This document shows, one piece after another, positions 5,969 through 39,127 of a stretch of 64,000 nucleotides of DNA. Numbering within the stretch: position 1 is the stretch's first letter; the number at the start of each line of letters is the position of its first letter. The notes below the pieces were generated by a model, which worked only from the letters and a program-made list of their open reading frames with translations, did not search any database and had not been told where the DNA came from. This DNA is from Eledone cirrhosa (taxonomy: Eukaryota). The DNA lies in assembly GCA_964016885.1 (NCBI GenBank), contig OZ024740.1:439022001-439086000 (forward strand), read 5' to 3'. Position numbers and translations under genes: made by a program.

Positions 5969-6024
5969 AATAATAATAATAATAATAATAATAATAATAA
6001 TAATAATAATAATAATAATAATAA

Positions 6025-6210
6025 TTGTTTCTACTTTTCGCACAAGGCCAGCAATTACCCAGTGCATTACTGGTACTTTATTTTATCGACCCCGTAAGGA
6101 TGAAAGGCAAAGTCAACCTCGGCGGGATTTGAACTCAGATCGTAAAGGGACGTAACTATGCTGGAAAGCATGGCGTCCGACCCTCTACCGATACTGCCAA
6201 TCCACCGCCC
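6025..6210 (-). mobile_element. tRNA-derived SINE with (ATT)n tail, inserted in a (TAA)n tract
   Basis: Minus strand: A-box-like tggcagtatcggtagag, B-box-like gagttcaaatccc, core gcctttcatccttacggggtcgataaaataaagtaccagt, tail ggccttgtgcgaaaagtagaaaca(att)n. Matches 59971-60137. (AAT)n lies on both flanks. Confidence 0.85.
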
Positions 6211-6231
6211 TAATAATAATAATAATAATAA

Positions 6232-34487: not shown

Positions 34488-37400
34488 GAAGACGCACGAG
34501 GTGGTAGAAGGTCATGAAATCGCTCCCGTAAGTTTTTGATTTTTAACATATTTAAATCAATTGTGAAATAACAATTCTTAGTACAAATGTTGCATAATCC
34601 ACCGAATGAAGTCCCATAAAATTTCGGATCCATATTATATTGTTATATCGCTCAAATATTCAATTTTGTATTATATATTTTGTATTCAAAAAAAGAAAAT
34701 GGTTATAAATGGAAGAAAAGACCCTCTGTCTACACTATATAGAACAGCCAAATAACAGCAATTTTACCAACACCAGAAAGTTGATACACCACCTATCCCA
34801 TCACGGGGAATAGCCGTGTCTCTAGTGGAGAACGACCCCTCTAGTCTTGGTTGACACTCGTTCTAGAAGTGGTAACACGAAATAATTACCCCTTGGCGGA
34901 TAAGGATAAAACGCGACAAAATAAAGTAAATGTCTAATGATAAAATTTCATACCGGATCGGCCGTCACCCGGGTAAAAAAGGGCCGCGTCCCTCAGAGAG
35001 GAACCAGACTGGGGTCGAAAAATCAGCTAATGGTTCAAACCTTCCCATCACTTCGGAGCTGGAGACCTCCCATAACCGGAATACTCCTACTGTTGGCCCT
35101 CCATGCTCACCACCAAGAAATCCAAAAAAAAGAGAGAAAAATGGTCAAGGGAAGATAATAAAGAAGTCCTTGAGGCTTTCTACACTGCCATGTACTACCC
35201 ATCAAATACATCGAATACAGAACAGACATATATCAACTGCAAAAAGAAACATCCCGAAAATAGAGGCTATATTGACAGTAACAAACTAGCCAATATACGA
35301 AGAAATATTGTAAGAAAAAAGTTAATAACTGATATAGAAATTGATCAGATCAAGCTATTAGCACAAAGTCAGCGAAGGGAAAATGAAACATGTGTCAGTG
35401 AAAACGAGGTAAACTGTAACACTTCGAACCCCAGGGTTGGGGCGGAATCACTGGCAACAGAACACATTAAAGAAAGGATCGAAAAAGTGGAGGGAATGCA
35501 TGCTCAGGATGAAACTCAAAATGAAAATAATGAGATCGTAAATGATAAAGAAATGAATGAGAATGAACTTGCCAACTTGAATGATGAAATTATGATCGAA
35601 TGGATGAAAATGAAAGAATCTGATATGGGGCAACGAGACACCCTCCCTAAGATCCAGAACTCCAAACAGAACCAAAAGATAATACACAAGACTAACATAA
35701 TTCTCAAAAACATTATCATCACAAACAAACTAAACATTACTGATTTAAATCATCACTATTATGCATCGGCTAAAGTCACCACCCACTTATGTGGAGTGAA
35801 GATGAAAAAACAAAGGAATTCCCACAAGAAATCTAATTGGCAAGAGAACATCAATCGCCAAATAAACCTTCTCCGATCTGACATAGAAATTTTAACAAAC
35901 TATAAAGTAAGTGAACATGTTAAACAAACTAAACTTAGAAAATTGAAAAAAAAAGTACAGTATCAAATCAACATGTGACATAGACATGCTGATAGAAATA
36001 ATCAAGCAAAAAGTGTCGGCCAAAGCTGCTCGTATAAGGCGCTTTGAAAAACGATCTAGATTCTATAAGGACAATAATATGTTCAAAAACAACTAAAGAA
36101 ACTTCTACAGAAAAATTGGTAAGTCAACAATAACTGCTAAATCAATACCACCCAAGGAGGAAGTGCAAGAATTCTGGGAAAAGATCTGGGCCGAAGATCT
36201 GGATAGACAGACAAATGAAAGATACAGCTCACCTTGAGGAACAAATATGGGAAAATATAACAGTTGAACAGTTGCGCTTGGCTCTAAGAAAAACCAGCAA
36301 ATGGAAATCCCCAGGAAAAGACAAAATACAAAATGTTTGGATTTATGCCTTCACAGAGTCTCATGAGCTGTTAGCCCAACTTTACAATGAAATAGTTAAG
36401 GAGCCAGAAAAGATACCATAATGGCTAGTTAACGGCATTACATTCCTGCAACGGAAGAATGATGAGACAAACAATCCTCAAAATTACAGACCGATAACTT
36501 GCTTGACCACAATGTATAAAATTTTAACATCAGTTAATACACATATGACCACCTGATAACAAATGACCTATTTCCCATTGAGCAGAAAGGGTGTAAACGA
36601 GGCTCATATGGCTGTAAGGATCAGCTTCTGGTTAACAAAATGATACTGGAAGATTGTCATAATAGACACAAACATCTATCGATTGCTTGGATAGATTATA
36701 AAAAAGCATTCGATAGTTTGCCACACAGTTGGATTGAAAAATGTTTAGAGATTTTCAAAATATCCCCCGTTGTCAGGAGGTGTTTGTCATTCAGTATGAA
36801 GACATGGAAAACGACACTCCTTTTGAATAGTGAAACAAAATCACTGGAAGCTGGAGAAGTTAATATTAATTGTGGAATTTTTCAGGGTGACTCTTTATCA
36901 CCGCTTTTATTCTGCATCGCACTTATACCATTAAGTAAAATGCTCAATGAAACAAAACATGGATATAAAGTCTATGACAAAACCATTAATCACCTTTTCT
37001 ACATGGATGACCTGAAACTATTTGCAAAAAATGATGAACAATTGCAAGGGCTATTATGCACTGTGGAGCAGTTCAGTGATGACATTAAAATGGAGTTTGG
37101 ACTAGATAAATGCGCCAAAGCAACGTTCACCAGAGCAAAGCTGCTGAAGAATTCAGACATTAATCTTGATCGGGGGAACGTGATAAGAGAACTTGATCAA
37201 GAAAAAACTTACAAATATCTAGGTGTTTGTGAAGGAGACGGAATCAAGCACTCGACAATGAGGGAAAGGATAAGGAAGGAATGTTACCGCAGAGTAAGAG
37301 CAATCTTAAGAACGGAGTTGAATGCAAGGAATAGGATCGATGCCATAAACACGCTTGCCATACCAGTAGTAACCTACAGTTACAATGTCATCAACTGGTC

Positions 37401-38776
37401 AAGCACAGAGATCCGTAGGCTCGATACAAAAATTCGAAAATTCTTAACCATGCACAGAATGCATCACCCTAAGGCAGATACAGATAGAATATATCTCCCT
37501 AGGAAAGAAGGAGGACGTGGGTTAATCCAGTTAGACATTGCGTTGAAAACTGCAACAATTGGATTATCCACATATCTAAGGGAATCACATGATTTGATTG
37601 GATGATCAAACTCGTTTTGAAACACGAAAGCACCAAAAGATCATATTCCATTACAAAAGATGCACAAAGATACAGTAATGGACTACAAATTTCAGAAGTC
37701 CCATTTACTGCTGAAATGGAAAACACAGAAAAAGCAAAGTAGGTAAAAGTAACTGCAAAGAAAGAACTGCTACAGAAACTGGCTAAGAAATGGCAAGAAA
37801 AGCCTCTGTATGGAAAATACCCAGAGCGAGCTAACAATCCTGATGTTGACAAAACTTTAACCCATCAGTGGTTGGCATCCTCTGGACTGAAATCGGAGAC
37901 TGAAGGACTGATTATATCAGCACAAGATCAGTGTCTGCCAACAAAAAATTACCAAGCCAACATAATAAAAAATGGTTGCAGCCCATTATGCCGTGTATGC
38001 AAAAAACAACCAGAGACCATTGACCATATAATTTCAATGTGCAGTCCTATAGCTCCAACCGAATACCTAAACAGGCATGACAGAGCTGCACAATACATAC
38101 ATTGGATAATGTGTAAGCATTTTGACCTGCCCCATCAAAAGAATTGGTGGGAGCATCAACCACCTCCCATACTTGAAAAAGATCACATCTCAATCTTGTG
38201 GAACTTTAGCATCCAAACAGACCGAAAAATAGAGGCAAATAGACCTGATATAATATTGAAGGACTTTCAAAAGAGGGTATGCCTGCTAATTGATATGTCT
38301 GTTCCAATAGACAAGAATGTATCTATAAAAACATTTGAAAAATTGAGCAAGTATAAGGACCTGGAGATAGAAATTGGAAAAATGTGGAAATTGAGAACTA
38401 AAACAATACCAGTGGTTGTAGGCGCTCTGGGAATGATACCTAAGGGGTCTAATGATTACTTATCGCAGATCCCAGGAAACCCGCGTATAGGAGAAATACA
38501 AAAGATAGTACTAATGCGAACTGCCCATATACTAAGGAAGATTCTGTCAATATAAGTACATCACAAGTCTAAACACTAAAGATGCATGTGTGAGTATGTA
38601 TGTTCTTCCTTGAACATGGCGGACCTTGTTGTCTCTTGAGGTCACTGGTTGTGACTTGGTGATAACTCGTATGAACATAAAGCAAGATAAATGCAACTGT
38701 AATAATAATAATAATAATAATAATAATAATAATAATAATAATAATAATAATAATAATAATAATAATAATAATAATA
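34488..38776 (+). mobile_element. Family B copy B3, full length with shortened leader; ORF 34930-38555 broken by several frameshifts and stops
   Basis: WIDYKKAFDSLPH, GIFQGDSLSPLLF, HLFYMDD, CCHC, RPD; 3' UTR as in B1; (TAA)n tail. Confidence 0.93.
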
Positions 38777-39127
38777 AGAAGAAGAAGAAGAAGAAGAAGA
38801 AGAAGAGAGATGGGGGAGAGCGTTTATCTATTTAAGTGGTGGTAGGACTAAAGAATAAATAATTTCTCCCCCCCCCACACACACACACACATTCCGTGAT
38901 GGTGTTCTTTCCATTTCTAAATATATCACAACCAACTAATGGATTACGCTACTGCATGTTACAACTTTTTTTATTTTAATTTCATAATTATAAAAGGTAA
39001 CCTATTTAATAGCAATTATGAACTATGTAAATTGTCACCGATCTACAAATAATTTTGATACACACACACATGCACATACAACCCCACGATATATGTGTGT
39101 GTATATATATATATACATATATATAAC

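Follow-up and report, generated by a model that had tools for sequence, protein, structure and literature searches.

Dong/R4-like and Tx1-like retrotransposons occupy the same (AAT)n/(ATT)n microsatellites in opposite orientations and form mixed trains in Eledone cirrhosa

In a 64,000-nucleotide stretch of Eledone cirrhosa DNA (GenBank assembly GCA_964016885.1, contig OZ024740.1, positions 439,022,001 to 439,086,000, hereafter the window), nine retrotransposons follow one another within one (AAT)n microsatellite (the focal train, window positions 5969-38805). They belong to two families with a restriction-like endonuclease (RLE), A and B, to a two-frame type with an apurinic/apyrimidinic endonuclease (APE), T, and to a tRNA-like short interspersed element (SINE). 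A and B have (TAA)n on their sense strand while T and the SINE have (ATT)n, a polarity that a sequence-only reading of the window had proposed and that our analysis confirmed. Polarity, register, scale, intact open reading frames (ORFs) in many copies and arrays on both sides of insertions were all observed. We consider it likely that A/B and T enter (AAT)n/(ATT)n in fixed, opposite orientations through protein recognition, with the first nick made on different strands.

Self-BLAST, ORFs and annotation with natural copies showed the nine elements to run through the focal train without gaps. The spacers were (AAT)n only, four times with (AAG)n, and contained no host DNA. Every base was assigned to SINE, A, B, T or (AAT)n/(AAG)n, in agreement with the order, strands and spacers read earlier. 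The train begins with (AAT)19 (5969-6025, plus strand), which adjoins host (CTT)17, followed by the 186-bp SINE (6026-6211, minus strand), whose terminus is ...GTAGAAACA(ATT)n. After (AAT)7 comes A1 (6231-10772, plus), a Dong/R4-like copy with a rearranged 5' head that includes a 157-bp duplication and with a frame for reverse transcriptase (RT), CCHC knuckle and RLE at 7603-10686. A2 (10800-11405, plus), a 5'-truncated A of ~600 bp, stands between (AAT)9 and (AAT)17, and is followed by A3 (11457-15878, plus), which has a full 5' head and is a mosaic of a young-A 5' part and an older-A 3' part, the switch lying at ~15030 (88% identity). Beyond (AAT)9 lies T1 (15906-21860, minus), a full-length two-ORF element with stops and frameshifts in this copy, and beyond (AAT)7 lies T2 (21882-27781, minus); both have (ATT)n at both ends. 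The remaining members are B1 (27835-29384, plus), 5'-truncated and preceded by (AAT)9(AAG)10; a B/A chimera (29527-34374, plus) after (AAT)32(AAG)16, in which the head and 5' half of a B pass at ~32015 into the 3' half of an A; and B3 (34485-38700, plus) after (AAT)25(AAG)14, with an internal deletion of its 5' untranslated region (UTR) near 34800. The right end is (AAT)25(AAG)10 (38701-38805, plus).

Genome-wide counts, made as exact matches in the 3.0-Gb assembly, showed that this arrangement is general. The T 3' end matched 6,459 times. TTATTATTATT stood directly upstream of 2,380 of 2,483 T1 heads, as against (AAT)3 upstream of a single one, and in-register (ATT)n directly preceded 1,579 of 1,723 T2 heads. 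Since, on any one strand, only 0.18-0.34% of host positions have (ATT)3 among the preceding 24 bases, the 92-96% of T heads lying behind (ATT)n exclude chance. For A/B, a perfect (AAT)3 was found within 2 bases upstream of 719 of 1,309 heads, and in samples the others mostly followed (AAG)n or imperfect runs. Sampled heads, from pools biased by neighbour selection, followed AAT in 27, AAG in 4 and neither in 2 cases for A (n = 33), and AAT in 14, AAG in 4 and neither in 1 for B (n = 19). An A/B head behind (ATT)3 occurred at 10 sites, and all eight inspected consisted of (AAT)n and then a short (ATT)m. The sequence-only reading had named a lack of 5' (ATT)n in most T copies, or random orientation, as grounds for giving up its claim that RLE and APE lineages use one microsatellite in opposite polarity; neither was found, and the claim holds genome-wide. 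Both the T heads and the truncated T copies (36-50% with 5' arrays, see below) lie above the figure of >20% of flanks by which PMC4494074 defines target specificity. If insertion were random and elements were merely retained at microsatellites, little more than the abundance of simple repeats in the window would speak for it, and the single-base register (ATT|G) and the near-absolute polarity of thousands of young copies would be left without a cause; the polarity counts exclude this explanation, and we give it practically no credence.

The proteins encoded by these elements are of unrelated types. A and B have one ORF each (1,131 and 1,216 amino acids in intact natural copies) with intact motifs for RT, CCHC knuckle and an RPD..D..K-type (PD-(D/E)xK) RLE, and the two proteins are 35% identical. 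Their nearest solved relatives, by sequence and by fold (model of A, predicted local distance difference test 87), are R2 proteins. No C2H2 pattern occurs in the first 400 residues of the A/B protein; a conserved helical domain with a conserved Trp occupies residues 41-117 and may correspond to the divergent Myb/SANT-like domain of the Dong/R4 clade. A quick RT tree without named Dong/R4 proteins grouped A and B with unnamed and arthropod RLE proteins only. The single RT-CCHC-RLE frame and the (TAA)n on the sense strand point to A and B as Dong/R4-like RLE families. A search for a ribozyme like that of hepatitis delta virus (HDV) in the A/B heads gave no Rfam match and no unusual folding energy, with no pseudoknot descriptor search made. 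A GC-rich stretch just 5' of the B ORF (30560-30690) may represent a former 5' end or what is left of a ribozyme; neither Rfam nor folding returned anything for it. The B 5' UTR also holds, at 30400-30460, a sense SINE tail and then ATTATTAATAAT, suggesting that B took upstream flanking DNA as its UTR.

T encodes an ORF1 protein of ~698 amino acids with a CCHC knuckle and an ORF2 protein of 1,139 amino acids with APE, RT and zf-RVT domains; APE and RT motifs are intact, and both frames are open in many copies. T1 and T2 are ~95% identical in ORF2, differ in their 5' UTRs and share 49% of residues over a conserved core of ORF1. At least six different T-type 5' ends with an ORF1 homologue (T1, T2, T3, T4b, T8 and T9) are preceded by (ATT)n. 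The nearest named relative of ORF2 is a protein of Argonauta hians (69%). T is 29% identical to Xenopus Tx1, and ORF2 scores 329 bits with Xenopus Tx1 versus 182 bits with human L1, the scores coming from different databases. The quick tree, which contained no mammalian L1, Kibi, Koshi or Keno, placed T with Tx1 in a 36-row group (Shimodaira-Hasegawa-like approximate likelihood ratio support 91), yet as a separate 13-row lineage (100). By score T is nearer to Xenopus Tx1 than to human L1, and we class it as a Tx1/L1-group APE lineage. Many copies are 97-99% identical, and, set against the number of 3' ends, the 4,206 T1 and T2 heads suggest a share of full-length T copies well above half, which is unusually high for an L1-group element. 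In one truncated copy (locus L513) the 5' junction contains a short inverted segment, presumably akin to the twin-priming inversions of L1.

Near-identical T sequence was also present in sequencing runs (X4-X20) under 17 organism labels, with a share of at least 0.28 in 10, which may reflect wide sharing among octopods or horizontal spread. Run X1 matched a host stretch with no differences and may derive from the source sample. X4, which carries another organism's label, matched the host stretch at ~94% and was likewise T-rich, so that T is likely to be present in a related species; X5 and X7 held T at ~99% with little host stretch and are not interpretable. There was no RNA run among those listed as holding T, and the matching data were short-read contigs, too short to span a train. 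A metagenome scan for T relatives returned only distant ones (23-41% identity), with an (AAT)5 run at 1 of 80 loci, and atlas searches yielded only RT/APE clusters.

Does the array beside an element represent its target or a self-made tail? We used 5'-truncated copies as the test, as they cannot carry a leader. (AAT)n adjoined 10 of 12 truncated A copies and all 10 truncated B copies, one B via (AAG)n. Among 38 T copies picked by 3' identity, the 31 full-length ones all had upstream ATT runs (two imperfect), and a 5' array was found in 4 of the 7 truncated ones. We also drew an unbiased, position-ordered set from the first 100 T matches on contig C1, of which 66 were fetched (28 truncated within the stretch, 38 reaching its edge) and 34 were left out as already seen or judged full-length from head positions and tandem partners. 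The 28 truncated copies had a 5' array in 10 cases by strict and 13-14 by lenient scoring, with wrong polarity in one and with (CTT)n preceding the element in two; under strict scoring the difference from the SINE (2 of 29) was significant (Fisher P = 0.0099). At the 3' side, the flank began with ATT in 65 of the 66 copies and formed an array in 59, and 35 of the 66 directly adjoined an A (16), a B (8) or a T head (11). Off-target T copies (L462, L475, L479) ended in one or two ATT before other sequence; therefore, the arrays behind the 59 copies are mostly target. Target duplications marked by variant units measured 18 bp (L239) and 16 bp (L479) for T and 15 bp (L173) for A.

Several observations weigh against targeting of pre-existing arrays by T. 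Between 14 and 18 of the 28 truncated copies had no 5' array, and lenient scoring gave no difference from the SINE (13 of 28 vs 9 of 29, P = 0.28). In one copy (L515) a long array on the 5' side contrasted with just one ATT at the 3' end, L268 and L386 have variants close to the 5' junction that were not copied, and the cut register of A/B was unreadable, being masked by microhomology. As a pre-insertion control we examined a host repeat (L419-L448; a 35-base motif with 727 exact matches) that has two ATT-rich tracts and has been hit repeatedly by T and A. Leaving out two beside A fragments, 24 of 28 empty copies had fewer than 5 ATT units (median 1), and three T-filled copies had ~19-40 units over both sides, so T may enter short ATT runs and build arrays.

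These results bear on an alternative in which T, like the SINE, needs no more than a short ATT(AT) motif and is itself the source of the long arrays, a builder more than a seeker of them, by RT slippage at the 3' end and by a 5' (AUU)n leader or slippage on full-length RNA, A and B then entering the arrays made by T and the SINE; polarity and trains would look the same. It would account for the contrast between full-length T copies (5' arrays in 92-96%) and truncated ones (36-50%) as well as for control sites that are mostly short when empty and long when filled, and the (AAG)n and (ATT)m added at A/B junctions show that junction slippage occurs in this system. However, truncated T copies are still enriched more than 100-fold for 5' arrays, off-target copies have no added tail, two T copies have duplicated variant units at either side, and several array-less truncated copies directly abut A/B fragments, which fits later deletion. 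On balance we regard array-making by T as unlikely, though it carries real weight. The control repeat supports the renewal of the target by insertion.

We also considered (AAG)n as a duplicated second target of A/B and rejected it, since it was present 5' and absent 3' in L406, L409, L412, L414 and L211. L415 has (AAG)n on both sides, the 3' run standing before the head of the next element. At the 5' junctions of A/B, runs of (AAG)n and (ATT)m mostly have no counterpart on the 3' side, and slippage during the joining step or later is their likely source.

Elements of these kinds insert by target-primed reverse transcription, in which the first nick falls on the strand opposite to the element's sense. 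Under that model the first cut of A/B would be in the (ATT)n strand and that of T in the (AAT)n strand (for the general scheme of such insertion see PMC10499050). The T junctions (…GAAATC|ATT and ATT|G) are compatible with cleavage of both strands at T^A steps. Since the tail of T is short, annealing of its RNA alone is unlikely to select long arrays, and protein recognition is likelier. A staggered second cut (15-18 bp where readable), together with slippage, would leave an array on each side, so that each insertion would offer all families fresh sites and trains would grow, to be reshaped by later deletions, duplications and recombination. The SINE would accompany these elements, with a less strict preference for ATTA, and may be a source of new arrays.

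Growth by insertion is not the whole account of the trains. The self-renewing train proposed from the sequence alone stands insofar as arrays survive on both sides of insertions, and is to be qualified because some trains grow by DNA duplication. Four tandem B copies on contig C28 have diverged by 0.0-0.1%, with the nearest dispersed copy at 0.9-1.4%; a T1 array on contig C4 contains a repeated block and identical pairs; and the 11-kb T1-T2 block of the focal train (16726-27810) has an inverted copy ~570 kb away (G000:C1:439600711-439611800, 98.4%). The old A 3' end beside this block recurs with it, and A3 is a young/old mosaic at the block edge. These cases and the B/A chimera show that trains are also remodelled at the DNA level. 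One could go further and explain the trains mainly by tandem duplication, unequal exchange or misassembly instead of successive insertions, and the near-identical copies on C28 and C4 and the inverted block are what such an explanation would lead one to expect. Against it, families, truncation points and orientations alternate, the sampled T, A and B copies have varied neighbours on either side, and most neighbours in the focal train diverge about as much as dispersed copies do: T1 and T2 by 4.3%, B1 and B3 by 1.6%, and the 5' parts of the chimera and B3 by 3.0%, with A1 and the A part of the chimera at only 0.8%. An assembly artefact is unlikely, as most members differ from one another and junctions of the same types are found on many chromosomes. 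The divergences argue for separate insertions rather than an assembly loop, and we find the duplication account very improbable as the main origin of trains.

Trains are not confined to this locus. A second one (46989-53326, plus), as read earlier, consists of (AAT)15, B4 (47034-47381), (AAT)7, A5 (47402-49861), (AAT)20, B5 (49922-53299) and (AAT)9. It is bracketed by 240-bp inverted repeats (96%; 40262-40500 and 53568-53806), 13 kb apart, which are possibly DNA transposon ends. A third, which the sequence-only reading had missed, starts at 59970 and runs to the window end (59970-64000, minus) with SINE(+), (ATT)13 and an old A(-). Past the end (loci L151-L153) it continues for at least 29 kb with B(-), A(-), A(-), three T1(+) and pieces of T and A, reaching extended position 92976 or beyond. 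It measures at least 33 kb in all, and its polarity is that of the focal train. Its B and one A differ by 0.4-0.6% from focal train members, which are nearer than any sampled dispersed copy, hinting at local copying. Further trains were found on C1 (439.59-439.62 Mb), C4 (>70 kb, mostly T1) and C28, with identical polarity throughout. The window also contains an inverted repeat with 1.1-kb arms (88%; 55748-58256), for which DNA transposon ends are again possible, and a 58-bp tandem repeat of ~7 copies (59213-59613).

The SINE had been counted among the occupants of the niche. It does have the polarity of T, but it is not array-specific. With the window's own locus left out of 30, 5' arrays were present at 2 of 29 loci by strict scoring (at least 4 units) and at 9 of 29 by lenient scoring, and target duplications of at least 8 bp were found at 18 of 29 (range 9-19 bp), mostly starting with ATTA. 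Therefore, the SINE is no array specialist and prefers short ATTA sites. Its last 32 bases resembled T-type tails for 18 of 20 variants (z 2.6-4.6; A and B tails, z -1.3 to 2.2), a likeness that was first seen by eye, with tails gathered by the shared motif, and that serves as a lead only. Directly left of the focal train lies a fold-back with ~230-bp arms centred on two SINE tails (5459-5966).

A and B also share a part. Their common 5' head (11458-11825 in A3, plus) is 75% identical over ~370 bp, and outside it only two short DNA matches were found, close behind. The B head scores 275 against the young A head while the head of an older A subfamily scores 97, although A bodies are ~90% identical; since the B head is nearer to the young A head than the older A head is, the head has moved between families. 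We considered whether the stretches of ~1 kb at 11457, 29527 and 34485 might be host DNA or a separate element and rejected this, as 30 of the 30 best genome matches continue into A and the same head stands before B. The layout of the A/B heads recalls that of T heads, with GTAAG near base 45, an A-run and ATGG near 210 and then an ACC-rich part. Pairwise comparison of the two sets gave z 7-10 for two pairs, and a profile made from T heads only ranked A/B heads 2nd, 3rd and 12th of 153 targets (E 0.33, 0.55 and 25). A Tx1 origin of the A/B head is thus possible. No Tx1 body was found behind it, the eight ATT-preceded heads inspected all leading to A-type sequence. On a wider view, which we put forward tentatively and rate below an even chance, octopods would harbour an (AAT)n guild in which a shared, self-renewing microsatellite keeps RLE and APE elements together and trading parts. 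The A/B head would have begun as a Tx1-type promoter and ORF1 start, captured in place of a Dong ribozyme head and then handed from one RLE family to the other, the SINE would travel with the T machinery and seed ATT sites, and much of the young mass of long interspersed elements (LINEs) would have been built in this way.

Several consequences follow for retrotransposon biology. (ATT)n is added to the targets of APE-type elements, and A/B and T, with intact copies of all three proteins, offer a natural pair for studying how a single three-base repeat can be read from opposite strands by unrelated nucleases. As a candidate mechanism for LINE hotspots in octopod genomes, a target that survives insertion would gather 5-6 kb elements by the thousand in trains at a distance from unique DNA. 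That a head was swapped between families whose proteins are 35% identical shows trains to be sites of module exchange. Users of AAT microsatellite markers or short-read assemblies in these animals should expect both to be entangled with active retrotransposons.

Precedents exist for every ingredient, and it is the combination that appears to be undescribed: a new Tx1/L1-group target shared with RLE elements from the other strand, thousands of near-full-length copies and head exchange. Full-text literature searches returned no (ATT)n-targeting Tx1 and no mixed Dong/Tx1 trains, Repbase, subscription papers and the supplements of PMC4494074 being outside that scope. Among recently active LINEs of Octopus vulgaris are Dong-R4 and L1-Tx1, and transposable-element hotspots are uneven; target sequence, polarity and train structure were not analysed in the available portion of that account (PMC13282606). 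Dong targets TAA in insects, molluscs and cnidarians (PMC7998251; PMC3812793), and R4/Dong proteins have an N-terminal helical domain without C2H2 fingers (PMC7998251). Dong of Bombyx mori, Anopheles, Biomphalaria and Darwinula resembles A/B in its single RT-CCHC-RLE ORF, in the (TAA)n on the sense strand at both sides and probably in its helical N-terminal domain without zinc finger. A/B differ in their common, swapped 5' UTR of ~1 kb. They also yielded no sign of a ribozyme, while one of HDV-like type is present in B. mori Dong (PMC3774820). Tx1 families target (TC)n (Kibi), (TTC)n (Koshi), (TTCC)n/(TTTC)n (crocodilian), U2 genes and transposons (PMC4494074). The Kibi, Koshi and crocodilian elements are like T in having two ORFs, an APE-RT-zf ORF2 and simple-repeat insertion (PMC4494074), and T is set apart by its (ATT)n target, its own lineage with the Argonauta protein, the sharing of its target with RLE elements and its thousands of full-length copies. 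In B. mori, SART and TRAS enter one telomeric repeat in opposite orientation and form arrays (PMC10088271); however, both are R1-clade and telomeric, while A/B and T have unrelated endonucleases and use dispersed microsatellites. The convergence of RLE and APE elements that had been proposed is real for this microsatellite, but it is not without precedent, as Utopia (RLE) and Keno (Tx1, APE) both target U2 snRNA genes (PMC4640811; PMC4494074), two lineages converging on one target class as A/B and T do. The gene target of Utopia and Keno is destroyed by insertion, whereas the microsatellite survives on both sides here, making mixed trains possible.

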